Source of the DNA: Patescibacteria group bacterium | GTDB taxonomy: Bacteria; Patescibacteriota; JABMPQ01; JAQVVF01 | Length of the DNA: 64,000 bases | Assembly (NCBI GenBank): GCA_041662665.1 | Contig: JBAZSC010000001.1 | Span: 321,511 to 385,510, forward strand | Direction: 5' to 3' | Part shown: positions 8,711 through 53,773 of the stretch, one piece after another | Layout of the letters: the number at the start of each line of letters is the position of its first letter | How positions within the stretch are numbered: the first letter of the stretch is position 1 | Position numbers and translations under genes: made by a program | Notes under the pieces: model-generated | Told to the model about the DNA's origin: nothing | Databases searched by the model: none | The model's input: only the letters and a program-made list of their open reading frames with translations

Positions 8711-11605
8711 TTATTTTAAAACATTTGTAAATTCATCGCTCTTTAAGAAATCCTCTTTAATTTGTGGGATTGTCTTATTGCTTTCTGCCCAATAATCAAC
8801 TCCAGCAACATCAGCAGGCCTTGAATACAATGTTTCATATAGTTCAGCAATTGCTGCTTTTCTGCCATTATCTTTTTCAATTGTTTCTAGTCTATTATTG
8901 TATTCAAAACTATTTGCCAAATCTTCGCGCATTCTTTTTTGAGAATCCTTGAAAGTATCAACTAAATAATTTACACCGCCTTGATCACCACCACGTTTCA
9001 AAACAACATTGTAAGAAAATTCTGCATTCGCTTCATTTTTTGCTGCAAATAATTCTTGCAATTCATTTCTTGATTCAGTGCTTGCGCTAATTGCAAATTT
9101 TACGCCTTCTCTGGAAATTCTATCTCTGGATCTTATTTTTGTCATTTGTCGATACCAATAATTTACTCCATCATCATCTGCGAATTTATACAAATTATCG
9201 TCATAAATTCTATCTAAACTTTTTTTATATAGCCAAGTTACTAATTTTTTAGTTACTTTTTTCTTATTTAAATAATTATTAAATTCTTTGTATTTTCGAT
9301 CATTTAACATCATAAATCTAATGCCAGGCAAGGTGATATTAGTATCGTACCAGAAATTTACGCCGCCATCTTGGACTTTTGCAAAATCATATTCTTTATT
9401 TAAATCATATTTTCTATCAAAGATCCAATTGTAATAATAGAGGATTGTTCTTTTTCTATTTAAAGTTAAAAATGTACCAAGAGTTGTTTTCTTTTCGCTA
9501 TCCAAGAAAATTCCTTTATCTCCAATAGAAAAGCGATAATAATATTTCATTCTGCCATCATTAAAGCCATCTTGATTAAATCCATCTTTTTCACCGCCTT
9601 GTAAATCTCTTAATACCGCATAATATTTATTTGCTTTACTATCAAAATATACCTTTGCATTTTTATCAAGATTATTCTTGTCAGTTCCATAATTAAATTT
9701 AAGATTATTGCTATCAAGAGCATTATCTAGTTTATTATTTGCATCAGTATCATTGCCAGAAATCTCTGCAATAACTCGATTTGCGCCTCTATAGATGTAT
9801 GTTGTTGTACCGGAAATATCACCATTTGGATTTGGATCATTTGGATCAGGTAATGGAGGATTAGGATCACCAGGTCCGTCAGGTCCATCAGGATCAACTT
9901 CGTCAGTTTTTGTAGCTGTGTAAGAAATATCTAAGTTATCAATATTTAAATATGTATTTGGAATAACCAAAATAGAAAATTCTTTTCTAGCCACTAATAC
10001 AGGAATTCCACCAGATATTATATAGGAAACTCTTATTTTTCCAAAACCAGATTTTTTTCCATTCATTGATACTCCAACTAACGGAAGGTTAGAAAGTTGT
10101 CCAACACGTTGAGAAGCGCTAACATTTTTGTTTTCTTTCGTATTATCAAAGACCTGAACAATATCCGGAGTCAAGCTTTCAATCGTTACATTTGCTTTTT
10201 CAAATCGTGAATCTATGTCATTAGGACCTAAATCTGGCCAAAAAGATTTTTCTAAAAAATAAAATTCTTTAGTTGCATCAGGGCTTGCGACTAAAATTCC
10301 TCCTGGTACTAAATCTTTTTCCAGCATTGGATTTTCGTCACTATTTTGATTTATATTAAAAACTTCAGAACCTGTCATTCCAATTTCAAAATTATCAGCA
10401 GCTCCGCCATTTTCAAAATTTTCATTTTCTTGAAGATTTTCAGCTTGTGCGAGAACTTGTGAATGAAGACCAGTTTCATCAGACTGAATAATTGCTGCCC
10501 ATTTTAGTTCATTACCATCAGAATTAGTGAAATCATAACGAAAACCTTTGCCTGGCATTTTATCTATCCAATTGTCAGATTCATTTGAGATATTATTCCA
10601 GTTTGTTCCGTCATTTGAAAAACTGGATGGAGTATACCAAGTCGCTCCATTATCATTAGAAGCTAATAAAATGATTGTTCCTTTTATATTTTTAGGGCTA
10701 TTTGGCAACAAGATACCGTCAATATCTGCTATTTTTAAATTAATTTCTGCAGATTTTATATTATAATTATCATTTAAATTAGTTGAAATATTCTTTGATA
10801 CAGTCAAGCCTTGGATAAATCTAGTATCCAAAATTTGATTTGTTGGATCAAAAATATCAAAACCAGAATTTTGCACTGGAAATTTATAATTATCTTTGTA
10901 TTCTCCGCAAGCGCTTAGTTGCAAAGTTGCTTCCGAATCAGGAGAAATCGGCAAAATACGCGGTTTTTTTGTTCCATAAAAATCATTATAGACAATTGCT
11001 GAAACAGGCGTCTGTGAATCAATCATTGCTAATGCATTTGGATTATTTTCGCCGTTGTCTCTTCTTGCTGTTAAATTAAGATCATATGGTAATGTTGTAT
11101 ATTGTCCTAAATGTGCATCATCAAAATTTAAAACTTGTTCTTGAAGTTGTACATTATTTTTAGTCAAAGGACTAGCTATGATAGTGGCCATTTGCGAAAG
11201 AGAAATATCATTTGTACAAGTGTCATTTGAACAAAAGGTACCGCAAAGTTGTTTTGTGTAGTTAACATTTCGATCTAAAGGAGCATTTTGCCTTTTTAGA
11301 TTTATCAAGACATTTGGTTTTAAAACATCTCTGCCACCTTCAACAACCATTTGTGCATCAGTTTTAGTTTGATCAATATTATTATTGTTCGCAAAGCTTT
11401 CCAAAAAACTGCATTTAAATGTTCCATCATCTTGAGTCTGGCATCCAGAGGGTGGAATAATTCCAGCGAAAAAAATCGCAGTTCCAATTGCTGTTATCAC
11501 AACCAGAGCAGTAACAATACCAACTACAACTCTTGATCGAGTAGAAACTCTAGTCTTTGTTTGGATGCTTTCTATTAGATTATTCGTATTGTTTTTGTTG
11601 TTCAT
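8711..11605 (-). CDS. Giant N-terminally anchored surface protein, paralog 3 (Pro/Asp-rich linker, DUF4214-like C-terminal repeats)
   Basis: 964-aa ORF with an N-terminal TM helix and the linker DPDGPDGPGDPNPPLPDPNDPNPNGD. The C-terminal block is near-colinear with paralog 2 (RMKYYYRFSIGDKG, TLNRKRTILYYYNWIFDRKYDL, ELYETLYSRPADVAGVDYW). Confidence 0.8.
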   Translation of the reverse strand: MNNKNNTNNLIESIQTKTRVSTRSRVVVGIVTALVVITAIGTAIFFAGIIPPSGCQTQDDGTFKCSFLESFANNNNIDQTKTDAQMVVEGGRDVLKPNVLINLKRQNAPLDRNVNYTKQLCGTFCSNDTCTNDISLSQMATIIASPLTKNNVQLQEQVLNFDDAHLGQYTTLPYDLNLTARRDNGENNPNALAMIDSQTPVSAIVYNDFYGTKKPRILPISPDSEATLQLSACGEYKDNYKFPVQNSGFDIFDPTNQILDTRFIQGLTVSKNISTNLNDNYNIKSAEINLKIADIDGILLPNSPKNIKGTIILLASNDNGATWYTPSSFSNDGTNWNNISNESDNWIDKMPGKGFRYDFTNSDGNELKWAAIIQSDETGLHSQVLAQAENLQENENFENGGAADNFEIGMTGSEVFNINQNSDENPMLEKDLVPGGILVASPDATKEFYFLEKSFWPDLGPNDIDSRFEKANVTIESLTPDIVQVFDNTKENKNVSASQRVGQLSNLPLVGVSMNGKKSGFGKIRVSYIISGGIPVLVARKEFSILVIPNTYLNIDNLDISYTATKTDEVDPDGPDGPGDPNPPLPDPNDPNPNGDISGTTTYIYRGANRVIAEISGNDTDANNKLDNALDSNNLKFNYGTDKNNLDKNAKVYFDSKANKYYAVLRDLQGGEKDGFNQDGFNDGRMKYYYRFSIGDKGIFLDSEKKTTLGTFLTLNRKRTILYYYNWIFDRKYDLNKEYDFAKVQDGGVNFWYDTNITLPGIRFMMLNDRKYKEFNNYLNKKKVTKKLVTWLYKKSLDRIYDDNLYKFADDDGVNYWYRQMTKIRSRDRISREGVKFAISASTESRNELQELFAAKNEANAEFSYNVVLKRGGDQGGVNYLVDTFKDSQKRMREDLANSFEYNNRLETIEKDNGRKAAIAELYETLYSRPADVAGVDYWAESNKTIPQIKEDFLKSDEFTNVLK

Positions 11606-38715: not shown

Positions 38716-38806
38716 TTCTGCGTTTTCTGCGTTCGATTCTGCGTATTTCTGCGGAATCGTTTTTAACGCAGACTAACGCAGAATCTAACGCAGAACGTGC
38801 AGAAAA
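38716..38806. repeat. Word-built inverted repeat (ttctgcg / cgcagaa words)
   Basis: ttctgcgttttctgcgttcgattctgcgtatttctgcgg faces aacgcagactaacgcagaatctaacgcagaacgtgcagaa. Confidence 0.75.
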
Positions 38807-38829
38807 TAATCTACACGTTTTTTTTGTGC

Positions 38830-38860
38830 AAAAAAAAGACCGACTCGGACGAGTCAGTCT
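38830..38860 (-). terminator. Intrinsic terminator of high-GC cassette C
   Basis: The minus strand reads agactgactcgtccgagtcggtct followed by T8. Confidence 0.7.
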
Positions 38861-38905
38861 AGGTAGGGTGCGAAAGGAACGGGTGTTGTGAGTGTGTGGG
38901 TAGGT

Positions 38906-39493
38906 CTATCGGGTGGGGGGGCTCAGCGTGTAGGTGTAGCGACCGGGGGCGAAGCTGATGTGCAGCTCTTCCTGGGTCACCATGCCGTCGCGGGGGACTG
39001 GCACGTTCACGGTGTCGAGCCTGTACAGCTCTTCACCCTTCTCGTTGACGTTGGCCCAGACGTTGCAGTAGGGTGTGGTCTGGTTGAAGAGGTTGACGAC
39101 ACGATCGGGCAGCTTGAGATCTTTTCCTGTCTGAGTGAGCACCAGCTGCAGGAACCTCTTCCTGCCACGCTTATCCTCACGCCAGAACCAGAAGGCATCC
39201 GTCACCTTGTAGCCAGCCATGCCGAGCTCGCTCAGGAGTGCGCTCATGTCGACCATCTGCCGATTGGCAGCGATGTTCGTGCCGGTGTCATCCATGCCGT
39301 CTCTCTTGACACCGAACTCGATTCCGAGATCCTTTGCCTCCTTGCGGTGCTTCGCAGCCACCGCCTTTGCATCGTACTCCTTCTGAGGGAGCAGAGCCTC
39401 GATCCAGCCGCCGATTCCGGCGACCTTCACGAGGATGATGAGGGGCATGAGCCCCAGACCTTCGAACTGATCAACCAGGACCGTGCGGCTCAT
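38906..39493 (-). CDS. High-GC (about 60%) SD-led ORF of unknown function, 195 aa (module C)
   Basis: Start reassigned to MSRTVLVDQFEG, preceded by acaGGAGGtttccg. Codons mostly end in G or C. There is one hydrophobic segment (LGLMPLIILVKVAGIGGWIEALL). I recognise no family. The plus-strand ORF 38888..39583 is its antisense shadow. Confidence 0.65.
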   Translation of the reverse strand: MSRTVLVDQFEGLGLMPLIILVKVAGIGGWIEALLPQKEYDAKAVAAKHRKEAKDLGIEFGVKRDGMDDTGTNIAANRQMVDMSALLSELGMAGYKVTDAFWFWREDKRGRKRFLQLVLTQTGKDLKLPDRVVNLFNQTTPYCNVWANVNEKGEELYRLDTVNVPVPRDGMVTQEELHISFAPGRYTYTLSPPTR

Positions 39494-39542
39494 CGGAAAC
39501 CTCCTGTCAGTGGTGGCACTCACCCCGATTCCAGGGCTTTTC

Positions 39543-39571
39543 ATCATATCACAGCACCCTATTTTTGTCAA
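39543..39571 (-). promoter_or_regulatory. Sigma70-type promoter of module C
   Basis: On the minus strand, TTGACA (39571-39566), a 17-nt spacer, then TATGAT (39548-39543). Confidence 0.6.
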
Positions 39572-39730: not shown

Positions 39731-40708
39731 TTATGCTTTGAGTGCAACCTTCGCTAGTGCAATCGCTCCTTCTCTTGATTTCGCTACTACAATATGCCCA
39801 TCTTTATGGCAGTTATCAGCATCAGCAACTCCAGTCAATTTGACCAAAGTTGAGCCGCGCTGTCCATGCCATGCTTTTGGCAAGTTTTTACGATAGCGTT
39901 TGCCAGTCCCATATCCAGCATTCACAACATGTACCATCCAGCCATTGTTAACGCGATGAACAACAAATTTGATCAGCGGTAATTCTTTAACAACTGATGA
40001 CCAAGGCATCGGATCATTCAATACAACAATTCTTGGATCATCAGATTCAGGTACCGCTTTCAACACCAGCTCTTCAGCTCTGATGACGCCTGCAGCTCTT
40101 GCAATTGTCCTTTTTAGATAGACCTTGGCAAATTCCAAAGCTTCAAAAAAAGCAACATCTGGATCTCGATCATTTTCATCCCAAGCTGGATTATAATTAT
40201 CAATCACATTTGAAATAGTGTGTGCAGAGATATCTTCCACTTTTCCTTGAAAAATCTTGTAGCCATTGTCCTGTGCATCAATTGGAATCACCAGCCACTT
40301 TTCTACAAGCTTAGCTACTTTTTCATTTCCATCACAAATTGCTACTCCAAACTTTTTCCAGACCAATCCAAAAGAAGCATAGGGCAGATGTGCGGTCACT
40401 TTCTTGCCAAACAATTTCCACATCAGCAAGTTGATAATATGCTTGAAAATCCAAGCAAACCGCAAGACTTTGAAAAAGCCTTCACGTATTCCAGCTCCGC
40501 CAAACATGTGATGATCAAAGTCGCCAGTATTTGGATCATTTTCGCCGCCGACATCAACTCGAAAATCAGCCTTTTCGTAAACTTCCTGATCGCGAGTCCG
40601 AAAAATTTGAATGATAAAGAGCAATGCCAATGCTGCACACGCAAACACATCATCAGCATGAAACCTTCCATTATGCGTTGCAACAACCTTATGTTCCTTC
40701 TCAATCAT
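39731..40708 (-). CDS. MYG1/UPF0160 family metal-dependent hydrolase; SD-led cassette gene
   Basis: The N-terminus VATHNGRFHADDVFACAAL is the MYG1 signature. The SD is GAGGAGGaagaggaa. The terminator agaggtttttacctct plus T-run follows. Confidence 0.8.
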   Translation of the reverse strand: MIEKEHKVVATHNGRFHADDVFACAALALLFIIQIFRTRDQEVYEKADFRVDVGGENDPNTGDFDHHMFGGAGIREGFFKVLRFAWIFKHIINLLMWKLFGKKVTAHLPYASFGLVWKKFGVAICDGNEKVAKLVEKWLVIPIDAQDNGYKIFQGKVEDISAHTISNVIDNYNPAWDENDRDPDVAFFEALEFAKVYLKRTIARAAGVIRAEELVLKAVPESDDPRIVVLNDPMPWSSVVKELPLIKFVVHRVNNGWMVHVVNAGYGTGKRYRKNLPKAWHGQRGSTLVKLTGVADADNCHKDGHIVVAKSREGAIALAKVALKA

Positions 40709-40742
40709 TTCCTCTTCCTCCTCTTCGTTTTCGCAGCTAATT

Positions 40743-40771
40743 AAAATATCAGAAAATAACTAAAATGTCAA
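40743..40771 (-). promoter_or_regulatory. Sigma70-type promoter of the MYG1 cassette
   Basis: On the minus strand, TTGACA (40771-40766), a 17-nt spacer, then TATTTT (40748-40743). Confidence 0.55.
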
Positions 40772-40800
40772 CTGAATGTAAAATATATTTGTGTTATTTG

Positions 40801-40815
40801 TGGCCTTAAGGCATT
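40801..40815 (+). repeat. Copy 4 of the 15-mer palindromic core TGGCCTTAAGGCATT
   Basis: tggccttaaggcatt with flanks atatttgtgttatttg / tgtgcatattcg. It lies just 3' of the TPR gene stop/terminator. Confidence 0.75.
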
Positions 40816-40847
40816 TGTGCATATTCGAGAGTATAAAAAATCAGCCG

Positions 40848-42353
40848 TTATTTCGACTGATCAACTCGGTTAAAGGACATTCCAAATGCGACTCTGTAGG
40901 CCGCGTACGCAGGTTCAAGGTACTCTCTTTCATCTGAACAAATATGTTGTTCACAACAAGTCAAGAAATAGTCAGCCTGTTTTTTGTCATGTCTCTTCGG
41001 CATTGTGAAAAAGTAGACAAAAGGCAGATACATTTCTGGCCTGCGTTTGTCATCATCAACCAGCATTTCCAAAGCTTGCAAAGTCCTCAGCATTTCAGAT
41101 AGCTTTGATCTGCCAATTCTTGATTTCTCAAGATAGATGAACAGAAGATTAACAGAAATTGCAGCAATGATTTCAGTATCATCAAAGGCCTTGATTGCTT
41201 CTTTGCATGTTGTTGCAAGAACATCAAGCCTTGTTGCTTTCATTTCTGGATCCGGAAGATGAGCGATTGTATGCCGATGTTCTTTCAGATGTCCAAGAAA
41301 TGCGCGTGTTGCCTGAATTGACTTTTCATCATCAACTCCAGCTTCGCGGCATTTTACCAAGTACTCGATTGCTTTCGCAAAAGTGCTTGGCTTTCTGGCA
41401 TAGAAAAAGACAAAAGCTGCATAGATTCTTGGTGGAACTCTGACACTCAAACCTTCAGCTTTTGCAAGCAGTTCATGCATTTCTTTTGATTTATCATCTC
41501 TGAATTTCTTTGACCATTCCAGATAGACATACAACAATCCTTCTATGGCTTGAATCAAGAAAGTAGGCGAATCTTGTAGATAGCTGATCGCTTCCAAAAA
41601 GAGCATCTCAGCTTCAGCAAGCTTTAGTCTTTGTTCATCAAGATCTTCAATCTCTTTGACAGCTTTGCGTTGATGTTCAGCATAAGCAGAACAAGCAGTT
41701 CCAACAAAGCTCAAGGCCAGAGATCTATTTTCTTTGAACTGAACAAAGAAAATCAATGCATCAGCAAACTTGTCCTTGGCGATCATCACTTCAATGTAAT
41801 CTTTCACCAGATAACCAACTTGTTTATTTTCACCATAATACTTCAGTAAGTGGGCAAGTTGAACTTGCGCTTTTTCAAAATCATCTTGAGCAAGATAGAT
41901 TCTTGCCATCATGCAATTTGCCTGACAAGAGAAGGGATTGATTCTCAAGGCGTCTTCAGCGTATTGCCTTGCATCATCAAATCTCTTTTGCTCGAGGCAA
42001 GTCTTAGCCTGAATCAGATAGAAATCAGTATCTTCATCAGAATCGCTAAACAATGCAGTGAGTTCGCTGATTTTTGCATTTTCGCGATCAGGAAAGAATC
42101 TCATCAAATAGCTTAGCTTTGCCATCGCCTGATCTTTTTGACCAGATTTATGCAAAGCATGAATCTGAAGATTCATTGCCAAACCATTGCAAGGATCTTC
42201 TCCAAGAGCTTTTTCGCAATGAACTAATACACCAGCAAAATCATTCTGTCCTAAACAAGTCGCCGCTTTTGCACAAGAATCAGGTTCAAGTGTTGATGAA
42301 TCACCAAGCAATTCAAGTAAATCACCAAGATTAAGATCTTCTGGCTCAGCCAT
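40848..42353 (-). CDS. TPR-repeat protein; SD-led cassette gene
   Basis: 501 aa with repeated A..Y...AL..(D/N)P helical-pair motifs (FDDARQYAEDALRINP, FEKAQVQLAHLLKYY). The SD is GAGGAGGaagaga. Confidence 0.7.
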   Translation of the reverse strand: MAEPEDLNLGDLLELLGDSSTLEPDSCAKAATCLGQNDFAGVLVHCEKALGEDPCNGLAMNLQIHALHKSGQKDQAMAKLSYLMRFFPDRENAKISELTALFSDSDEDTDFYLIQAKTCLEQKRFDDARQYAEDALRINPFSCQANCMMARIYLAQDDFEKAQVQLAHLLKYYGENKQVGYLVKDYIEVMIAKDKFADALIFFVQFKENRSLALSFVGTACSAYAEHQRKAVKEIEDLDEQRLKLAEAEMLFLEAISYLQDSPTFLIQAIEGLLYVYLEWSKKFRDDKSKEMHELLAKAEGLSVRVPPRIYAAFVFFYARKPSTFAKAIEYLVKCREAGVDDEKSIQATRAFLGHLKEHRHTIAHLPDPEMKATRLDVLATTCKEAIKAFDDTEIIAAISVNLLFIYLEKSRIGRSKLSEMLRTLQALEMLVDDDKRRPEMYLPFVYFFTMPKRHDKKQADYFLTCCEQHICSDEREYLEPAYAAYRVAFGMSFNRVDQSK

Positions 42354-42583
42354 TCTCTTCCTCCTCGTTTTTGCCTTTGACTTTCTGCTTTCTTTCTGTT
42401 ATTCTGAATCTGGAAGTTATCAATTTTATCCGCGTGCAATCCGATAAATCCGCGTTATTCGAAAAGCTGATTTTAACGGATTACATGCGGATAAAACTGA
42501 AAAATTAGTTATTTTGTTAAGAGCAAGAAAAAAAGAGCACTAAACATTATATAATATAATTATTAATTTGTCAATTTAAACGT

Positions 42584-44112: not shown

Positions 44113-44904
44113 ATGAAAATAATTGCAGGTATCAAATTTAATGTTTTAGACAAGATCTATAATTTTGACCAAAATAATATTATACTAAATAAGGGTGATA
44201 AGGTCATTGTTGAGACAGAACAAGGTACAGAAATTGGCACCGTTGTTTTTGCTAACAAAAATGTTGATGAAACAAAGCTTGAATTTGCTTTAAAGCCAAT
44301 TTTAAGAAAAGCAACAACAACTGATACTGAAAAGCTTGATAATTATAAGATTAAGCAGGAAGAAGCTTTAAAAGTATGCAAAGAATTAGTTGGCAAACAC
44401 AATTTAGATATGAAAATAGTTGCTGCTAATTATACTTTTGATGGTTCAAAAATAATTTTTTATTTTACTGCTGAAAGCAGAGTTGACTTCAGAGAATTAG
44501 TAAAAGACTTAACAAAAAAATTTCAAAAATCAATTCGCTTGCAACAAGTAGGATCCAGAGATGTTGCTGCAAAATGCGGCGGATGCGGAATGTGCGGTAA
44601 GGAATTATGTTGCACAAAATTCTTAAAAGATTTTGCTAGCATCACAACAGATATGGCACGAGAACAACAAATGGTTCAGCGAGGATCAGATAGAATTTCA
44701 GGTTGTTGCGGAAGATTATTATGTTGTTTAGCATACGAAACAGAATTATATCAAGATTTAGCTAAAGATTTTCCAACAGTTGGCAAAAGAGTTAGAACAA
44801 AACAAGGAGTTGGAACAGTTATTGGCAGAAATCTATTAACCAGAAATTTGGATATATTGCTTGATGATAAGACAAGAATATCAGTTAAGCTCCCGGAGAG
44901 ATAA
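44113..44904 (+). CDS. PSP1-domain protein (YaaT/RicT-like)
   Basis: The length, and the Cys cluster CGGCGMCGKELCC ... CCGRLLCCL near the C-terminus, are typical of the PSP1/RicT family. Confidence 0.7.
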   Translation: MKIIAGIKFNVLDKIYNFDQNNIILNKGDKVIVETEQGTEIGTVVFANKNVDETKLEFALKPILRKATTTDTEKLDNYKIKQEEALKVCKELVGKHNLDMKIVAANYTFDGSKIIFYFTAESRVDFRELVKDLTKKFQKSIRLQQVGSRDVAAKCGGCGMCGKELCCTKFLKDFASITTDMAREQQMVQRGSDRISGCCGRLLCCLAYETELYQDLAKDFPTVGKRVRTKQGVGTVIGRNLLTRNLDILLDDKTRISVKLPER

Positions 44905-45042
44905 TTTCTAATTATAAATTTCTAATTTCTATTAAATTCTTAATGAATTAATTTTCAAACCTAACGGCTAGTATAGACATTAGAAATTAATGCATTATTA
45001 ATTTAATAAAAATTAGAAATTAGAAATTGAAAATTAATAACG

Positions 45043-45678: not shown

Positions 45679-45789
45679 AATTTCATTCTGTCATCGCTGG
45701 TTAAATTTGTTGGTGTCAACAAATTTAACCAGCGAAGGATCCCATGATTTATTGCTGATTAATGGAATAATTGCGTAAACTTTTAACGG

Positions 45790-45972
45790 GCCGTTGTAGC
45801 TCAGTCGGCAGACCTGCCCGCCATCGCCCGAGCCATTGTAGCTCAGTTGGTAGAGCAATTCCATGGTAAGGAGTAGGTCACCGGTTCAATTCCGGTCAAT
45901 GGCTCAGGCGAGGGCAGGCGGGGTAATTCCATGGTAAGGAGTAGGTCGGCGGTTCGATTCCGCCCAACGGCT
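45790..45972 (+). tRNA. tRNA-Thr(GGU) interrupted between positions 23 and 24 (D-arm) by a 110-nt insertion
   Basis: The 5' part GCCGTTGTAGCTCAGTCGGCAGA (45790-45812) plus the 3' part GTAATTCCATGGTAAGGAGTAGGTCGGCGGTTCGATTCCGCCCAACGGCT (45923-45972) reconstitute a canonical 73-nt cloverleaf. It has acceptor GCCGTTG/CAACGGC, a D-stem with a G10-U25 wobble, and anticodon loop ATGGTAA. Confidence 0.6.
45832..45904 (+). tRNA. tRNA-Thr(GGU), complete, nested in the insertion of the outer tRNA
   Basis: GCCATTG TA GCTC AGTTGGTA GAGC A ATTCC ATGGTAA GGAGT AGGTC ACCGG TTCAATT CCGGT CAATGGC T: a full cloverleaf with anticodon GGT. Confidence 0.85.
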
Positions 45973-46226: not shown

Positions 46227-46336
46227 TTCGAAAATTACAAATGTCAAATTCCAAATTCCAAACAAATTACAAATCACAATATACAAAATCTTTGTAATTT
46301 GTTTGGAATTTGTTATTTGTAATTTTATTTAATCTC

Positions 46337-47089: not shown

Positions 47090-47098
47090 GAACATGCT

Positions 47099-47963
47099 AG
47101 AAACTCGGTTTTCTATTAATCAAAAAAATAAACTTATTGTAAGTAAAAACAAGGTATAAAAAATAATCATTTAATTAAGATAAAACCGAGTTTCGCGTGA
47201 ATTCAAAAATAGAAATGCGCAAAACAAATTTTACAAATGAATCATTTTATCATATCTACAATCGCGGTACTGAAAAACGCGATATTTTTTTGCAAAATTA
47301 TGATTATTTTCAATTTATTAAATTATTAAGAAAATATAAAAATAATTTAGTTGAAATAATCTGCTATTGCTTAATGCCGAATCATTTTCATTTATTGCTA
47401 AAACAATTAAATAATAATGGAATCAGCAAGTTCATGCATTTATTAACAATAAGTTATGCAAAATATTTTAACAAAAAATATGATCATAGCGGAGTTTTAT
47501 TTCAGGGAAAATTTAAAGATGTCCAGATTTTGAGCTATATTCAATTGCTAAATATTTCAAAATACATCCATATAAATCCAGCTAAAGATCAGAATATTTT
47601 ATTAAAACAAAAAATAATTACATTAGAAAATTATCCTTGGTCTTCTTATAAAGATTATATAAATATCAGAAACGGAACATTATGTAATAAAACCGAAATA
47701 ATAAATTGTGTAGAAGGTAATTTTGTAAAAGAGTATAAAGAATTAATAAAGGCACATTTGATGAATTATAATGAGAGAAATTTGGATAAATTAATACTTG
47801 AATGAGTGAAATAGAAACTCGGTTTTCTATTAATCAAAAAAATAAACTTAATGTAAGTAAGAACAAGGTATGAAAAATAATCATTTAATTAAGATAAAAC
47901 CGAGTTTCATCATGTTGTAAATAATTGACACACGAAACTCGGTTTCTTCGGAAACCGAGTTTC
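47099..47963 (+). mobile_element. IS200/IS605-like (RAYT-type) Y1 transposase element with hairpin-forming flanks
   Basis: The transposase ORF is flanked by two 96-bp direct repeats (47099-47194 and 47813-47908). Each repeat is bounded by gaaactcggtttt ... aaaaccgagtttc. A third minimal hairpin gaaactcggtttcttcggaaaccgagtttc lies at 47934-47963. Confidence 0.75.
47197..47805 (+). CDS. IS200-like / REP-associated tyrosine transposase (HUH Y1 family)
   Basis: FYHIYNRGTEKRDIF, the HUH motif in CYCLMPNHFHLLLKQ, and YIHINPAK. The track start is GTG. An ATG 18 nt downstream is an alternative start. Confidence 0.8.
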   Translation: MNSKIEMRKTNFTNESFYHIYNRGTEKRDIFLQNYDYFQFIKLLRKYKNNLVEIICYCLMPNHFHLLLKQLNNNGISKFMHLLTISYAKYFNKKYDHSGVLFQGKFKDVQILSYIQLLNISKYIHINPAKDQNILLKQKIITLENYPWSSYKDYINIRNGTLCNKTEIINCVEGNFVKEYKELIKAHLMNYNERNLDKLILE

Positions 47964-48654: not shown

Positions 48655-48663
48655 GCATTTCCG

Positions 48664-48751
48664 TCTATTTATTAGAGGAGGTGAAATGGTCTCCAGGGAA
48701 TAAATCTTTTCTTTAGTCCTTGCTGAGCCACTTCGGCCTCTAATAAATGGG
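48664..48751 (+). ncRNA. Hairpin-closed structured element containing an SD-led 5-codon mini-ORF
   Basis: A 15-bp closing stem: tctatttattagagg (48664-48678) pairs with cctctaataaatggg (48737-48751). Inside is aGGAGGtgaaATGgtctccagggaaTAA (MVSRE), with an inner stem caggga/tccttg and a cttcgg loop. Confidence 0.35.
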
Positions 48752-48974
48752 CAGAATGAAATTTCCAATTACCAATTTCCAATTCACAATAAATTTTCAA
48801 TAAGCAATTTTCAATGACGACAGTGACGATTTGAAAATTAGTAATTGGTCATTTATTGTAAATTGATAATTGGAAATTAGAGATATGTAATCAGTAACTA
48901 GTAATCAAAAAATTGATTCCTAAATACTGATTGCGTGCGAGAGGGGACCAAGAGTCCTCGAGGAGGAAAGGACA

Positions 48975-49196
48975 ATGGCGAATTGCATCATCTGCCACCA
49001 GCGCGTTGCGAGCGGCGGTGACCGGCATGCCAAGGGGCAGTGTCCGGCGAAGAAGAAGGAGCGCGAGCAGAAGGAGAACGAGGTGCAGGCCGGCGATCTC
49101 GCGACCCCGGGTCGCGGAGACGTCGTGCCGCTGGCCGGCAAGACCAGCACCCAGCTCTCCAACAAGGGCAAGTCCCGGGGGTCCAAGTCGGGCTGA
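48975..49196 (+). CDS. High-GC SD-led small basic protein, 73 aa (module A)
   Basis: The SD cGAGGAGGaaaggaca precedes the ATG. Of the overlapping ORFs here, this is the frame I picked because its codons mostly end in G or C. The protein is MANCIICHQRV...GQCPAKKKEREQKE... I recognise no family. Confidence 0.55.
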   Translation: MANCIICHQRVASGGDRHAKGQCPAKKKEREQKENEVQAGDLATPGRGDVVPLAGKTSTQLSNKGKSRGSKSG

Positions 49197-49392
49197 GCCT
49201 GACACGACCCACAAGACGAGCCCAAGTACTAGGTTCTAGTGTCGTTCCGTTTCATCCCCAAGTTCCCCAGATTTTTCTTCAGTTTTCCGCCAGTACCTTC
49301 CATGCCAGACTCTTGTCTGGCCCCACCTGAAATAATAATGATTACATTGTTATTTGAGGCGGTACATTAAAAAATGATCAATTTACAATTTT

Positions 49393-49547
49393 TCACCCTT
49401 CGGGTGACCACCCGCAGGGTGGCAATAAATTACCAATTACCAATTTTCAAAGCGACGATGGTCGTAATTGGAAATTGTTCATTGAAAATTTATTGGAAAT
49501 TGCAAAATTGGTAATTGCCACCCTACGGGTGGTCACCCGAAGGGTGA
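49393..49547. repeat. About 155-nt composite inverted repeat with GC-rich self-complementary ends
   Basis: tcacccttcgggtgaccacccgcagggtggcaa ... ttgccaccctacgggtggtcacccgaagggtga. The AT-rich ccaatt/aattgg words sit in the middle. Confidence 0.8.
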
Positions 49548-49639
49548 GAAATTAGGGTTTGCGGTAAAGCAAAGATCTTAAAAAAGATTTTCGCCTTGCT
49601 GCAAAGTGCAGCCTATAGCAGAGAAGGAAAAGTAAACGA

Positions 49640-49816
49640 TGAACGATCAGATGGACGCGGCGGACCGGCGGATCATGGACGAAACGACTGTTCGGCTCGA
49701 AGGCCGGCAGGTCAAGTCCAGCCAGGGAGCTGGTTCCAGGTCGGCAGAAGTGCCAATCTGGAAGATCCGCGCGAGCCGTCGTGCTCTCCCCGCCATGGCA
49801 GTCTACGGCGACTAGA
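49640..49816 (+). CDS. Possible high-GC small ORF, 58 aa (module B)
   Basis: Below the ORF-track length cut-off. ATG at 49640 with only a weak SD (agaaGGAaaagtaaacg). The protein is MNDQMDAADRRIMDETTVRLEGRQVKSS..., and the frame has mostly G/C-ending codons. Confidence 0.35.
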
Positions 49817-50061
49817 CCTACCCCCAACTCTTCAGTTTTCCGCTCGTACCCTCCTGTGGTCACTTTTCGTGGCCACCTCAGCTTAAGCAACGATGTGATC
49901 GTTGAGTAAGTAGAGAACGTTACAAAATTATCAATTTCCAATTTACAATTCTCAATAAATTTTCAATGAACGATTTCCAATGGCGATACTCGGTCTGAAA
50001 ATTGAAAATTGGTAATTTATTGGAAATTGTAAAATTGATAATTGGAAATTAAATCTAGCTT

Positions 50062-50106
50062 TCAGCAGTTTGCCTCAAATTATTTTGAGACACACTATTG
50101 ATAGCT
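50062..50106 (+). promoter_or_regulatory. Conserved ~45-nt leader element, copy 1
   Basis: tcagcagtttgcctcaaattattttgagacacactattgatagc. It is about 80% identical to copy 2 and contains the hairpin ctcaaa/tttgag. Confidence 0.45.
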
Positions 50107-50148: not shown

Positions 50149-50814
50149 ATGCCAAGTAAAGACAAGCCAAGACATGTTTTTGTTAATTGCTTGTTTCATG
50201 AAAACGAAAGGCTTACAGTCACCAACAAGGATGGTGAATTAAAAGCCTGGGGATTTGATGGCGATGTAATAAGTATCATCTCGGAATCCATGTTGCTTAG
50301 CATATCGGGTTCCAATCTGCAACTTGATAAAAGAAAAAAAGCATTGTGTAGATATTTAAAGCTTTTCTTCAACGAAGGAAAACAACCTCCAGCAATTTGT
50401 TTTGAGCATGCAAGGAAGTTGGAATCTGTGTTGTTGCAAATGCGACGATTTCTTCCTAAGGAAAAAGCTAATGTCCAGATTTCTATGATTCCATATCAAG
50501 AAAGTCTGGATAAATGGGCAATCTGGGTAGCCGAAGTAAAAAGAAATAGAGATATTGAAGCTACGAGATTGTGGCGTGAGATTATTTCTAAGCATTTTCC
50601 AGATGATGAAAGTATTGCAGACGAGCAAGACGCAAAAGTGCTTGCTGATCGTCTGTCTTCTGAATGTGTTAGAGAATTATTTGATAAGATACGCAATACT
50701 GCACTTTACCGCAAATCAGAAAAATCTGAATTGCTGAAACAGATCGGATTGTACTTAGCAGAAAAAGCGTATGAAGAAGCAAAAATAAAACATGAAATAG
50801 ATTCTTGGAAGTAG
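50149..50814 (+). CDS. Hypothetical protein, 221 aa; SD-led cassette gene
   Basis: The SD cAAGGAGGaaaa precedes the ATG. GC content is intermediate. I recognise no family. Confidence 0.6.
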   Translation: MPSKDKPRHVFVNCLFHENERLTVTNKDGELKAWGFDGDVISIISESMLLSISGSNLQLDKRKKALCRYLKLFFNEGKQPPAICFEHARKLESVLLQMRRFLPKEKANVQISMIPYQESLDKWAIWVAEVKRNRDIEATRLWREIISKHFPDDESIADEQDAKVLADRLSSECVRELFDKIRNTALYRKSEKSELLKQIGLYLAEKAYEEAKIKHEIDSWK

Positions 50815-50943
50815 ATGACTGCATTTTAACCTCTGTATGTTTCCAGTTTTTATCAAGTTTTTAATGAATAATTTGCAATAGTTTGAAAATTAATTCATTG
50901 AAAATTTAATAAAAATTAATAATTAGAAATTAAAAATTCGCTG

Positions 50944-50987
50944 TCAGCCTTTTGCCTCAAATCATTTGGAGACAAAAGATTGATAGC
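50944..50987 (+). promoter_or_regulatory. Conserved ~45-nt leader element, copy 2
   Basis: tcagccttttgcctcaaatcatttggagacaaaagattgatagc. It lies upstream of high-GC module D. Confidence 0.45.
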
Positions 50988-51247
50988 CTGTCCCGTACTA
51001 TGTTTCTGGTGAATATAAAAAAACATTGATTACTTTAGGAATTTAATCAATGCAACAAACAATATTTATTAGATACTTAGTATGGGATTAATGCTAGAAC
51101 ACTGACAACTTGGAAGGTAAAAATAATAGTCAAAAGTGTTAACTGTTAAGTGTTAATGGTTAACTGTTTGAAGTTGGCACATCGCGGCCAGGCAAGGCCG
51201 CGTTCGCGCGCGAGTAGATTCCGCTTGTGTCAGAGGAGGAGAGCGAC

Positions 51248-53515
51248 ATGTCGACCAACTGCGAGCCGAAGAGCGTCAGCACCGTCAACACCGTCACCGA
51301 GGAGAAGGAGGTGAAGCCCGCCCGGGTGCGCAAGCCCCGGGTGAAGGTCGAGAAGGAAGAGCAGGAGCAGTTCAACGAGGATGGCACGAAGAAGGATGTG
51401 AAGGACGAGGCCCCGCCCAAGAAGCGGAGCCACCACAAGAAGGTCGAGAAGTCCGTCGCCGTCGAGACCGAGACCGCCGAGCCCGCCCCGCCCGCCGAGT
51501 CCACCCCCAAGGTGGCGTCGGTGGCGGTGGTCGAGCAGCCGGTCCAGGTCGCCCCGCCCGCCGCGCCCCAGCCCGAGCCCCCCAAGAAGGGCGAGGTCGA
51601 GGACGTCAACGAGGACGAGGACAAGGACGGCGAGAGCGAGGGTGAGGACGAGGAGCAGGAGACCAGCGAGGAGGCGCTGGAGGACGCCCAGATCAACGAC
51701 CTGGAGTTCCAGAAGAAGATGAGCGAGCTCCCCCGGCACGAGCAGATCCGGCGGCAGAAGGCCCGCAACCGGGTCATCACGAGCAACCGGCGCAGCCGCA
51801 AGACGGCGGCGCAGGACAAGAACCGCGCGGAGCACAACGAGATGCGCGAGGCCGGGCGGCCGGAGGTGAAGATCACCATCCCGGACCCCCTGATCTGCAG
51901 CGCCCACGCCGGTGAAGTCCTGAAGCTCGAGGACGCCTACTCGCTGAACAGCAGCGTGGTCTACGAGCTGACCCAGGTGAGCCAGGAAGGCAAGACCGAG
52001 GCGCAGACCAAGATCCTGAAGTTCGTGGTGAGCAAGCTCGCTCCGCTGTTCCGGTTCAACTGCGAGACCATCCCGGCCTACTGCAAGACGGTGGTGGACG
52101 TGCTGGCGAAGAACATCGCGGCCGTCCAGCCCCTCATCGCGCACGAGAAGAAGGCGCGGTGGGAGAGCCGGATCGTCATGCCCTACGCGGCCGCGCTCCG
52201 GCACTTCGCCGAGAGCAAGGCCGCGGTCGAGGGCAAGCAGCAGAACGTCAAGGACCGGCAGAACAAGGAGGCGTGGGCCTGGTTCGACGAGAACATCGGC
52301 AAGTTTCACGCCGAGCTGGTCGGGCTGCGCAGCGTCGAGGAGATCGTCGGCAAGATCGACATCCTGAACGGCCTGAACGACAAGTGTCTCGACACCTTGC
52401 GCCACCACTTCCTCGAGACCCTGCCCGTGATGCGCTACAGCGAGCCCGGCAAGATGCTGGGTCAGCTGCTGCGCGAGCGGGGCAAGAAGTACGAGCAGGT
52501 GCAGATCGAGGAGCAGCGGGCCCGCAAGGCCGAGGCCGACGAGAAGCGCAGGAAGGAGGAAGAGAAGGCTCTGGCCGGGCTGGGCGAGCTCGAAGGGCTG
52601 TTCGGTGGCGAGGAGAAGCAGGGCGAGGAGCAGGACGAGGAGCCCAGCGAGCGTGACGAGAACGAGAAGCGGATCGGCAAGTGGCTGGAGAAGCTTGTCG
52701 GCGGGAAGATGCACAGCGCGGCCGGGCTGATGACGCCCAGCGCCCTGCGCGAGATCTTCGCCGCGGATCCGGGCGCCGAGGTCTACTCGGCCTGCCCGTT
52801 CAGCCAGCAGGCGCCGGGGACCCAGTACTCCACCTACGTGAACCGGAAGGGCGACAACGAGCCCCTCTTCGCGACGGTGACGGTCCCGACCCTCGTGGTC
52901 GAGACCGACGACGAGGGTCAACCGATCTGCGACGGCAAGGGGCGGCCCAAGCCGTGGATCAACCCCCGTACGAGCAAGACGCAGTACGAGGGGCAGATCG
53001 CGGTGCTGACGAAGCACGAGGCCCGCTGGGCCGCGTCGATCCGCATCCGCCAGATGGCCGAGGAGCAGGTGAACAACGGCCGGTACGACTCGCTGGAGGA
53101 GGCCATCAACGGCATCCATCAGGAAGTCAACCAGGCCAAGACCAACCTCTGGGCGGCCAAGAAGGAGTTCAACGAGGCCAAGGTCTCCGGCGACCAGAGC
53201 CGCATCGACGCGGCCGAGGAGCGCCTGAACCAGGCCAAGGAGGTCATGAACCATCTGAGCGACGACCGTCGTCCGTGGTACCAGGGGATGCTCGAGGGAA
53301 GCCTCGGTGTCCTCAAGTACTACGATCTCAAGAACACGGTCGAGATGCTCAACAAGCCCCGTGAAGAGCGGCCCGCCAAGCGCAACACGCGCGGCGGCGG
53401 GACCCACGGCAACTACGAGCAGGAGCAGTCCCAGGGCGCGAGCGCGGAAGAGCAGGAGGCCTTCTTCCGCAGCCAGAACAACCAGAGCTTCGCCAACAAG
53501 GCCCGCCAGGTCTGA
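51248..53515 (+). CDS. High-GC, GC3-saturated SD-led ORF of unknown function, 755 aa (module D)
   Basis: ATG at 51248 preceded by caGAGGAGGAGagcgac (the track start at 51227 is GTG). By my manual read, about 30-odd of ~755 codons end in A or T. The protein is K/E/Q/N-rich with an acidic/basic low-complexity N-terminal ~200 aa. I recognise no domain. Confidence 0.75.
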   Translation: MSTNCEPKSVSTVNTVTEEKEVKPARVRKPRVKVEKEEQEQFNEDGTKKDVKDEAPPKKRSHHKKVEKSVAVETETAEPAPPAESTPKVASVAVVEQPVQVAPPAAPQPEPPKKGEVEDVNEDEDKDGESEGEDEEQETSEEALEDAQINDLEFQKKMSELPRHEQIRRQKARNRVITSNRRSRKTAAQDKNRAEHNEMREAGRPEVKITIPDPLICSAHAGEVLKLEDAYSLNSSVVYELTQVSQEGKTEAQTKILKFVVSKLAPLFRFNCETIPAYCKTVVDVLAKNIAAVQPLIAHEKKARWESRIVMPYAAALRHFAESKAAVEGKQQNVKDRQNKEAWAWFDENIGKFHAELVGLRSVEEIVGKIDILNGLNDKCLDTLRHHFLETLPVMRYSEPGKMLGQLLRERGKKYEQVQIEEQRARKAEADEKRRKEEEKALAGLGELEGLFGGEEKQGEEQDEEPSERDENEKRIGKWLEKLVGGKMHSAAGLMTPSALREIFAADPGAEVYSACPFSQQAPGTQYSTYVNRKGDNEPLFATVTVPTLVVETDDEGQPICDGKGRPKPWINPRTSKTQYEGQIAVLTKHEARWAASIRIRQMAEEQVNNGRYDSLEEAINGIHQEVNQAKTNLWAAKKEFNEAKVSGDQSRIDAAEERLNQAKEVMNHLSDDRRPWYQGMLEGSLGVLKYYDLKNTVEMLNKPREERPAKRNTRGGGTHGNYEQEQSQGASAEEQEAFFRSQNNQSFANKARQV

Positions 53516-53621
53516 ACCTTCCAACAACCCGCCCCCGGGACAAGTCCAAGCTTTAAGCTTGTAACCTTGCTCCCTGGCGCGCGGCACACTACCATTCCAG
53601 TTCTTTCATTCCCGTTCCTTC

Positions 53622-53650
53622 AGAAGACCCTTACCGGTCTTCTTTTTTTT
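53622..53650 (+). terminator. Intrinsic terminator of module D
   Basis: agaagaccc tta ccggtcttct followed by T8. Confidence 0.7.
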
Positions 53651-53701
53651 CACTAAGTTATCAGTTAACAGTTGAAAGTTATAAGTTACGTCAATTTACT
53701 C

Positions 53702-53730
53702 TTGCCATTTTTCAAGATTCCTGCTATCAT
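53702..53730 (+). promoter_or_regulatory. Sigma70-type promoter of rpmG
   Basis: TTGCCA (53702-53707), a 17-nt spacer, then TATCAT (53725-53730). Confidence 0.5.
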
Positions 53731-53773
53731 TGCAGTATAGCTTATAACTTACAACTTTTAACTTATAACTTCG

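Follow-up and report, generated by a model that had tools for sequence, protein, structure and literature searches.

We analysed a 64-kb stretch of DNA from a Patescibacteria group bacterium (assembly GCA_041662665.1, contig JBAZSC010000001.1, positions 321,511 to 385,510), referred to as the window, and focused on an unusually GC-rich gene that we term module D. The window has a GC content of 25-40% nearly throughout and rises to 60-66% over 51.1-53.7 kb, in agreement with an earlier sequence-only reading that had placed ~60-65% GC over 2.4 kb from about position 51175. The edges of this island are step-like, the GC fraction changing from 0.33 to 0.70 within 40 nt at ~51180 and from 0.50 to 0.25 at ~53640. 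The island has an overall GC content of 66%, compared to ~31% for the genome. Module D is a real protein-coding gene, a long-term resident of a small Patescibacteria clade and one of four GC-rich single-gene units (modules A to D), and its extreme composition is an actively maintained, stationary property of the unit rather than that of an un-ameliorated import. The features of the unit were assigned by comparison with the D alleles of three related genomes (L005, L006 and L164) and with x221, a low-GC gene upstream that is a paralogue of the central domain of D. UTR stands for untranslated region.

50928-50987, forward strand: AT-rich conserved upstream element with the operator-like palindrome TTGCCTCAAATCATTTGGAG (50952-50971), followed by TTGATAGC; from comparison with x221, L005 and L006.
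51094-51130, forward strand: conserved block CTAGAACACTGACAAyTTGGAAGGT with a promoter-like CTGACA-17-AATAGT; from a promoter scan, and kept 5' of D in L005 and L006.
51183-51213, forward strand: 5'UTR hairpin CGCGGCC-aggcaa-GGCCGCG (51183-51202), followed by an alternating GC tract; from the four-allele comparison.
51233-51241, forward strand: Shine-Dalgarno sequence GAGGAGGAG, 6 nt 5' of the ATG; read from the sequence.
51248-53515, forward strand: module D coding sequence (CDS), 755 residues; from codon usage and the four-allele alignment.
53516-53607, forward strand: proximal 3'UTR, with ACCTTCCAAC straight after the stop codon and then a stem-loop of ~55 nt; from the four-genome alignment.
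53608-53650, forward strand: terminal 3' block ATTCCCGTTCCTTCAGAAGACCCTTACCGGTCTTCTTTTTTTT with an intrinsic terminator (stem 53622-53643, then a T-run); from the alignment and a terminator scan.

The D open reading frame (ORF) has GC contents of 0.652, 0.385 and 0.956 at codon positions one, two and three (GC1, GC2 and GC3), respectively, with a strong three-base periodicity, whereas the GC3 of core genes is ~0.19. Codons ending in A or T number 33 of 756, matching the "30-odd" of the sequence-only reading, and GC3 is uniform along the gene (0.87-1.00 in each 60-codon block). The codon choice is one-sided (AAG 67/67, AAC 36/36, CAG 43/44, GAG 93/101), giving a mirror image of the resident usage. 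The protein is composed of 13.4% Glu, 8.9% Lys, 5.8% Gln and 4.8% Asn. Its lysine content is at the level of the resident core proteins (9.2%), and the earlier claim that the GC excess is carried almost entirely by synonymous sites holds in the main. Compared to these core proteins, Ile, Asn, Phe and Tyr are halved, and Arg, Ala and Pro are raised. The pressure extends beyond codon choice, as the UTRs share the GC richness, and GC1 and GC2 also exceed those of core genes (0.46-0.48 and 0.31, respectively). The flanking gene truD shows no GC3 gradient. Module D contains 804 G and 703 C (skew +0.07), with C exceeding G at fourfold-degenerate sites. It has no A/T run of four or more in 2,268 nt; a motif of A/T-run avoidance was considered and dropped, as the absence of runs largely follows from GC3 itself. 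A 785-residue antisense ORF (51230-53587), Leu/Gly/Val-rich and fragmented in the L006 allele, was likewise rejected as a shadow of the GC3 bias; its GC1 should be ~0.96, since its position 1 faces sense position 3.

The D protein corresponds to NCBI MFA6296086.1, encoded on a 645-kb contig of a Patescibacteria metagenome-assembled genome (MAG). In addition to this contig, both composition junctions, for which the sequence-only reading had proposed a check, are bridged by independent assemblies, namely ENA ERZ27249449 (7.7 kb; 99.93% identity in the 5.8 kb that include the island and 100% in the other 2.0 kb), Logan SRR18595301 (4.6 kb; 100% identity to the window) and a JGI contig. Because these assemblies span both junctions at 99.9-100% identity, the island is not an assembly chimera.

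A phmmer search against 1.84 billion representative proteins retrieved only the cluster of D itself and one further protein, P0004 (686 residues), with an identity of 33% (E 1e-42). P0004 belongs to MAG STF1_73 (L005; genome ~30% GC), where its gene, with a GC3 of 0.93, lies at a site of the order TrmB, C-like gene, D and rpmG; L005 also harbors, flanked by truD and tsf, an A-like gene (GC3 0.835), and its C-like gene has a GC3 of 0.78. A genome scan with the neighbouring TrmB-family protein yielded L006, which carries A, B and D (617 residues, GC3 0.93), and the module A family led to L164, which carries all of A, B, C and D (GC3 of D 0.915). Altogether, D is syntenic in all four clade genomes in which this region was recovered (the window, L005, L006 and L164), and all known copies of the A to D families lie at equivalent chromosomal sites in low-GC genomes. 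No relative of D was found by tblastn among 50,697 phage records or 72,556 plasmids, in IMG/VR viral contigs, or when metagenomes were scanned with the D alignment. Scanning metagenomes and genomes with the TrmB neighbour added no close relative to L005 and L006, the best of the remaining matches being 54% identical. A word-indexed search with the four-allele D profile was swamped by low-complexity words and set aside. The island edges have no flanking direct repeats, and no integrase or target duplication was seen in the part of the window ORFs that was screened; an IS200-like gene 3.4 kb 5' of D and a tRNA-Trp gene 400 bp 3' do not abut the island.

The noncoding parts of the unit are its best-conserved ones. 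The upstream element of D is 78% identical to that 5' of x221 (50046-50105), and an equivalent element precedes the D alleles of L005 and L006; the palindrome (CTCAAAnnATTTnGAG) occurs at two sites only in the window, 5' of D and 5' of x221. Judging from the promoter-like block, transcription of D would start near 51137. The 5' hairpin is present in all four alleles, with compensatory changes at three of its ten pairs, and every allele has an AGGAGG-type Shine-Dalgarno sequence and an ATG. The proximal 3'UTR is C-rich and G-poor outside the stems (the whole 3'UTR, 53516-53650, contains A25 C49 G21 T40), and its stem-loop is found in three of the four alleles. The 3'UTRs of the window and L005 share 89.7% identity, compared to 79-86% for the flanking housekeeping CDSs. 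The 43-nt terminal block is the same in the window, L005, L006 and L164 save one position (ATTTCC in L005), and its 31-nt core has an exact match at every D-bearing locus and at no other locus. No match to this block was found in viral contigs, and none to the noncoding parts of the D region in Rfam. These results agree with the sequence-only reading, whose Shine-Dalgarno sequence, 5' GC hairpin, C/A-rich 3'UTR start, pyrimidine tract and terminator were all found as described. Overall, the promoter region, the 5'UTR hairpin and the 3' block are far more conserved than the D protein. The 3'UTR start (ACCUUCC) might pair with the Shine-Dalgarno sequence or with TTGGAAGGT upstream; some units gave a suggestive signal, which did not consistently exceed that of shuffles (p 0.00-0.73).

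The silent sites record how long this composition has been in place. Core proteins of the window are 87-93% identical to those of L005 and L006, and at conserved fourfold-degenerate codons of the three genomes the third base, nearly always A or T, is shared in ~45-63% of cases. D alleles of different classes share 31-39% of their protein sequence (69% for L006 and L164, which form one class), and at their conserved fourfold-degenerate codons the third base, nearly always C or G, is shared in 45-58% of cases (45-53% for alleles that are 31-37% identical). Thus, silent sites are saturated or nearly so, as an A/T mix in core genes and as a C/G mix in D. All D alleles have a GC3 of 0.92-0.96, compared to ~0.2 for core genes. 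The C/G-randomised silent sites therefore imply that the G/C-only regime persisted through a long divergence, whereas an unmaintained import would have decayed because the drift of the genome is AT-biased. That every deeply diverged allele keeps a GC3 of 0.92-0.96 is the reason why we regard the composition as maintained. Within the L006/L164 class, the proportion of nonsynonymous differences (pN) is 0.21, compared to 0.42 for synonymous ones (pS), the latter at its two-state ceiling; the D protein is therefore under purifying selection within this class. NG86 dN/dS values between allele classes (~1.0-1.2) were discarded as meaningless, since the silent sites are two-state and saturated. The sequence-only reading had named, as grounds against it, unbridged junctions, or an ORF without homologues and without expression or purifying selection; instead, the junctions are bridged, homologues exist and purifying selection is seen within one allele class.

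Comparison of L005 with L164 shows how alleles are exchanged. Their core proteins are 91-100% identical and 72-93% of fourfold-degenerate sites are the same, compared to 39% identity between their D proteins and 33% between their A proteins. Nucleotide similarity between the two D genes is restricted to the 5'UTR and the first ~175 nt of the CDS (86%) and to the last ~90 nt and the 3'UTR (82.5%), the rest being unalignable. The first 60 codons are 80% identical, with 15 of 18 fourfold-degenerate sites the same, whereas the centre is 34% identical, with a random 48 of 91. Module A shows a similar pattern in this pair, and the allele phylogeny of D disagrees with the core phylogeny. Because near-identical L005 and L164 carry different classes and the gene ends are conserved, old D allele classes must move between close relatives by homologous recombination, with breakpoints in the conserved ends. 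This exchange lends some weak support to the earlier proposal of a mobile or viral gene, but no phage, plasmid or viral relative, integrase or target duplication was found in the searches described above.

The four-allele alignment with its invariant columns, combined with secondary structure from a low-confidence AlphaFold2 model, suggests the following layout of the D protein from the N- to the C-terminus.

Residues 1 to ~145: disordered acidic/basic N-terminus.
Residues ~160-197: conserved arginine-rich helix (R163, Q166, R168, R169, R173, R175).
Residues ~212-405: central helical domain, homologous to x221, with invariant C217, H220, C279 and C380.
After the central domain: charged coiled-coil linker.
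C-terminal part: strand-rich domain (PGTQxST, FxTVxVPxxVV).
Residues ~603-672: allele-specific coiled-coil insert.
C-terminal end: RNxRG...HGN tail.

The single-sequence AlphaFold2 model is poor, with a predicted local distance difference test score (pLDDT) of 46. Sequence searches of Pfam, NCBIfam, PADLOC, PHROGs and PDB, using single sequences and the allele alignment, gave nothing usable, in keeping with the earlier remark that no domain is recognisable. A match to PHROG 5083 (E 1e-4) was rejected, as it falls in the coiled-coil insert found in the window allele only, and a bZIP-like reading of the arginine-rich helix was dropped, as no Pfam match appeared even at E 10. The N-terminus (MSTNCEPKSVS...) has neither a signal peptide nor a lipobox. 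In view of the charged disordered N-terminus, the arginine-rich helix, the Cys/His positions and the RGG-like tail, D is most likely a nucleic-acid-binding factor, diversifying under conflict with the host or phages. The C-x2-H...C...C positions possibly form a metal site.

Module D does not stand alone. Modules A, B and C lie within 15 kb of it, the units being separated by housekeeping genes (truD, tsf, pyrH, tRNAs and rpmG), and x221 ends 430 bp upstream of D.

38820-39560, reverse strand: module A unit; CDS 38906-39493 (195 residues, GC3 0.81), with a TTGACA-17-TATGAT promoter, AGGAGG, a C/A-rich 3'UTR and a terminator.
48930-49330, forward strand: module B unit; CDS 48975-49196 (73 residues, GC3 0.88), a small basic Cys/His-containing protein.
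49560-49900, forward strand: module C unit; CDS 49639-49815 (58 residues), an arginine-rich peptide.
50149-50814, forward strand: x221, the low-GC paralogue of the D central domain (GC3 0.315), with its own copy of the operator element (50046-50105).

Each of the four units consists of an AT-rich promoter-like site, a strong Shine-Dalgarno sequence, an ORF, a 3'UTR rich in C and poor in G, and a hairpin followed by a T-run. None of the four proteins has a match in Pfam, PHROGs, NCBIfam or PADLOC. The module A family has eight members, and each one with a recovered genomic context is flanked by truD and tsf and belongs to the same clade; in two more distant genomes, A is present alone (GC3 0.88 and 0.63). 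GC3 varies from 0.63 to 0.88 among members of the A family and from 0.63 to 0.78 among those of the C family. An AlphaFold2 model of module A from the eight sequences is moderately confident (pLDDT 68.6, predicted template modelling score 0.70), and has no fold match in PDB or among viral structures. Homologues of module B are found at the equivalent site in L006 and L164, and those of module C in L005 (64% identity) and L164. The sole difference between the window and the ENA assembly inside the modules is at 49010 in module B, a silent third position (GCG/GCC, Ala); such a C/G swap is of the kind expected under a G/C-only regime.

x221 is 30-33% identical over ~196 residues to the L006/L164 class of D (E 3e-23 and 2e-21), and has no detectable match to the window's own D allele. 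It retains the Cys and His residues (C..H, C, C) that correspond to the D-invariant C217, H220, C279 and C380. At a GC3 of 0.315, x221 is unaffected by the force that holds D at 96% GC3.

Several other elements accompany the units. A MYG1-family gene (Pfam E 1e-55) and a gene for a 500-residue TPR protein adjoin module A (39731-42353, reverse strand), with a GC3 of 0.33-0.34 versus 0.19 for the core. The same pair lies beside A in genome L169, and the TPR gene beside A in L006 and L170. Just 5' of B and C is a noncoding element of ~97 nt (48659-48756, forward strand), which is ~93-95% identical in four genomes with saturated silent sites (L005, ~11452-11549; L006, ~11406-11503; L164, ~3968-4065, reverse strand). 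It forms one long rod-like hairpin (consensus -38 kcal/mol), contains a Shine-Dalgarno sequence and a five-codon mini-ORF, ATG GTC TCC AGG GAA TAA (MVSRE), and has no Rfam match. The IS200-like Y1 transposase gene (47197-47805; Pfam Y1_Tnp, E 3e-10) lies between direct repeats of 97 nt (47098-47194 and 47812-47908) that are 97% identical, each with complementary ends TAGAAACTCGGTTTTC...AAAACCGAGTTTC; in related genomes, Y1_Tnp genes occupy other positions of the same region. At 45787-45972 (forward strand), a complete tRNA-Thr(GGT) gene (45832-45905) is apparently nested in a second tRNA-Thr-like gene, whose 5' part (45787-45812) and 3' part (45925-45972) have between them the inner gene and two GC-rich, mutually complementary linkers, CCTGCCCGCCATCGCC and GGCGAGGGCAGG; ARAGORN and Rfam call the inner tRNA-Thr only. 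Moreover, many intergenic regions, including those between core genes, contain AT-rich low-complexity inverted repeats with arms of 25-65 nt that are 82-95% complementary (38716-38804, 42414-42506, 44902-45036, 46231-46326, 48759-48885, 49387-49553, 49925-50044 and 53655-53771), several of which fall into related families (AATTTCCAATT..., GTTAACTGTTAA...). Rfam microRNA matches at 48.7-50.0 kb were dismissed as spurious, being long AT-rich hairpins far below the gathering thresholds.

Two comparable units are present in L030, a more distant Patescibacteria genome (TrmB neighbour 41% identical; 37% GC background). They are unrelated GC-rich single-gene units, each with an AT-rich TTGACA-17-TATAAT promoter, after which the sequence is GC-rich as far as a hairpin terminator.

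8860-9879 of L030, forward strand: unit 1, a lipoprotein-like ORF of 339 residues, GC3 0.90.
15333-15854 of L030, forward strand: unit 2, an ORF of 173 residues with an internal duplication, GC3 0.84.

Judging from these two units, the phenomenon may be wider than this clade.

We next consider what keeps D GC-rich. All four D alleles are more stably folded than shuffles that preserve the protein and the codon usage (z -4.4, -2.1, -3.9 and -3.0), with a z of -1.9 for module A, compared to +0.8 to -1.7 for eight resident genes (seven core genes and MYG1) in the same test. In our preferred reading, the maintained trait would belong to the transcript: selection would keep A and U scarce in the message and its folding strong all the way between the 5'UTR hairpin and the terminator, and the conserved UTR elements and shared operator would control its use. 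A plausible purpose would be to make the mRNA long-lived and resistant to nucleases, in a cell that lives by RNA degradation. That D is a resident, fast-diverging gene whose GC-rich structured transcript is selectively maintained has, in our estimation, a roughly even chance of being right; it is ranked first because the edges are step-like, the UTR structures are conserved and covary, the message is over-folded and the neighbour x221 is unaffected. Several observations weigh against it. Excess folding is not specific to the GC-rich units, as low-GC x221 (z -5.3) and the 500-residue TPR gene (z -3.6) are also over-folded. By our own estimate, holding hundreds of silent sites at ~95% G/C against an AT mutation bias needs a 4Ne*s of ~4 per site, which to our knowledge is far above known codon or structure selection in bacteria. 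Moreover, the first ~35 nt of the 5'UTR, if transcription starts where the promoter scan places it, are AT-rich; the known D alleles number only four; and the function proposed for D is read from sequence features of a protein with no match in Pfam, NCBIfam, PADLOC or PDB. A 2026 preprint (10.64898/2026.06.21.733656) reports on a Patescibacteria parasite in culture that feeds on RNA taken up from its GC-rich host and degraded, and whose codon usage is complementary to that of this host; this provides a possible setting only, and tests nothing about D. In a further version, which strikes us as a long shot, the composition itself would be selected because the messages of A to D work outside the ordinary AU-rich RNA economy, either stored nuclease-proof for host contact or, more radically, passed to the GC-rich host on which the episymbiont feeds or translated with its tRNAs and ribosomes; the conserved UTR blocks would then serve as handling signals.

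Second in rank, and rather unlikely in our view, is a GC-biased gene conversion confined to these loci, or some other local process of repair or mutation with an AT-to-GC bias, by which unusually frequent recombination would drive weakly constrained sites to G/C whatever their function. In eukaryotes, GC-biased gene conversion is the textbook explanation for extreme GC3 at recombination hotspots; for bacteria, it has reportedly been proposed by Lassalle et al. in 2015. Recombination is demonstrated at the A and D loci, all classes of sites are shifted (UTRs, GC1 and GC2), and a per-site fixation bias fits near-saturation more naturally than functional selection does. However, the edges are step-like and the homologous flank truD has no GC3 gradient, x221 stays at a GC3 of 0.315 only 430 bp away and behind the same upstream element, and the 3'UTR is strand-asymmetric (C >> G), contrary to the prediction of a strand-symmetric process. 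We also know of no precedent in bacteria for an effect of this size (GC3 0.19 to 0.95). A distinct codon/tRNA regime was among the suggestions of the sequence-only reading. In the form considered here, G/C-ending codons would need another tRNA supply (host tRNAs imported while feeding, or host ribosomes after transfer of the message), which we consider improbable. The mirror-image codon usage fits it, as do the rapid protein divergence, which would suit a conflict with the host, and the typically GC-rich hosts of Patescibacteria with their reported host-parasite RNA traffic (10.64898/2026.06.21.733656). Codon usage is not the whole story, though, because the shift also affects the UTRs and codon positions 1 and 2, and the promoter, operator and terminator are of the resident type.

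Transfer from outside ranks lower than selection on the transcript and biased conversion, in both its forms. A GC-rich reservoir that has escaped sampling (a plasmid, a phage, or a relative whose genome is GC-rich) and that shares the gene family and its ends might supply alleles repeatedly, so that the resident alleles are young. We hold this to be unlikely, although the allele and core phylogenies disagree, GC3 varies within the A and C families as from differing residence times, and protein libraries are incomplete, with the L006 and L164 alleles themselves absent from them. Such a reservoir has left no relative in the proteins, phages, plasmids and IMG/VR contigs searched above, all copies of the four families sit at the same chromosomal sites in low-GC genomes, and the reservoir itself would have to carry an AT-rich promoter and operator of the resident type. 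The sequence-only reading had offered a recent transfer from a GC3-biased donor, perhaps the host of the presumed episymbiont. The atypical composition and sharp edges, the tRNA-Trp downstream and the IS200-like gene upstream would suit a one-off event of this kind; it is contradicted by the syntenic alleles in three other genomes, which have equal GC3 and randomised C/G silent sites, by the conserved regulatory DNA of the resident type, by a lysine content at the resident level with a GC2 of only 0.385, and by the absence of any donor homologue outside the clade in our searches, which together make it very improbable. The probability is next to nil for a GC-rich noncoding element, RNA or DNA, in which the ORF is accidental. 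Structural RNAs usually account for GC-rich islands in AT-rich genomes, and the D message does fold more stably than its synonymous shuffles; but the GC content differs by codon position (0.65/0.385/0.956), a full-length ORF is kept in four alleles sharing 31-69% of residues with randomised silent sites, a Shine-Dalgarno sequence and ATG are present in all of them, and no Rfam match was found.

Among known systems, the vls cassettes of Borrelia are the nearest analogue of the D locus; they have 49.1% G+C in a genome of ~28.6%, from which the authors infer a strong pressure to maintain the composition (PMC11499132). Both loci are hypervariable, more GC-rich than their AT-rich genomes and varied by recombination. 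However, the composition gap is much larger for D (66% versus 31%; GC3 0.96), the GC skew of vls (~0.52, with G-runs) compares to only ~0.07-0.1 in D, and the vls product is a surface lipoprotein, whereas D lacks a signal peptide and lipobox. In addition, vls has an array of silent cassettes, ~90% identical, beside the expression site, whereas no D-like repeats exist in 38-54.5 kb and no such GC island is present in the 64-kb window. The large GC-rich (lgr) genes of Protochlamydia amoebophila (41-43% versus 34.7% GC), for which a foreign origin was proposed, have a genome-like codon usage (PMC2216083). They resemble D in being orphans, more GC-rich than an AT-rich symbiont genome and driven by their own AT-rich promoters, but their GC excess is small compared to that of D.

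In its allelic structure, D recalls capsule and O-antigen loci, where deeply diverged alleles are exchanged through conserved flanks; D likewise has conserved ends, a divergent centre and an allele phylogeny uncoupled from that of the core. It differs in that its own ends and UTRs serve as the conserved arms, and that its composition is maintained far from that of the genome, for which those loci are not known. Similar to islands acquired by horizontal gene transfer and to single-gene morons, D is a sharp island with a single gene for an orphan protein under its own promoter and terminator. Such islands, however, are patchy, have donor homologues and drift to the host composition, whereas D is syntenic in four genomes with its composition held. 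Genes at eukaryotic recombination hotspots share with D the near-saturated GC3, the less affected protein composition and the association with recombination, but their bias is regional and gradient-like on neighbouring DNA, in contrast to the step edges at a single transcription unit in D. Integron cassettes are promoterless ORFs with attC, unlike units A to D, which have their own promoter-like sites and terminators and are separated by housekeeping genes; no integron integrase was found among the scanned neighbours of D. Likewise, no repeat pair of the diversity-generating retroelement type involving D was found in 38-54.5 kb, with no window-wide search for a reverse transcriptase made, and the divergence of D spans the whole gene rather than just a C-terminal stretch as in the targets of such elements. 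Structured noncoding RNAs differ from D in its coding periodicity, its reading frame conserved in four alleles and its lack of an Rfam match. We know of no described case in which an AT-rich bacterial genome maintains a GC3-saturated regime the size of a transcription unit while the alleles diverge deeply.

Altogether, module D is real, conserved and unexplained by known kinds of element; its function and the force that maintains it are what we infer. Compositional islands are routinely read as recent horizontal gene transfer, and this reading fails for D. Either of the two leading explanations would be new, whether a very strong selection on a message's nucleotide composition, or a local GC-biased fixation of a strength undescribed in bacteria. 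Modules A to D form a small conserved set of orphans with a shared UTR logic, and are candidates for the host-interaction machinery of an episymbiont. In this respect, D offers a testable link to the idea, recently proposed, that GC-rich hosts supply the RNA on which Patescibacteria live.

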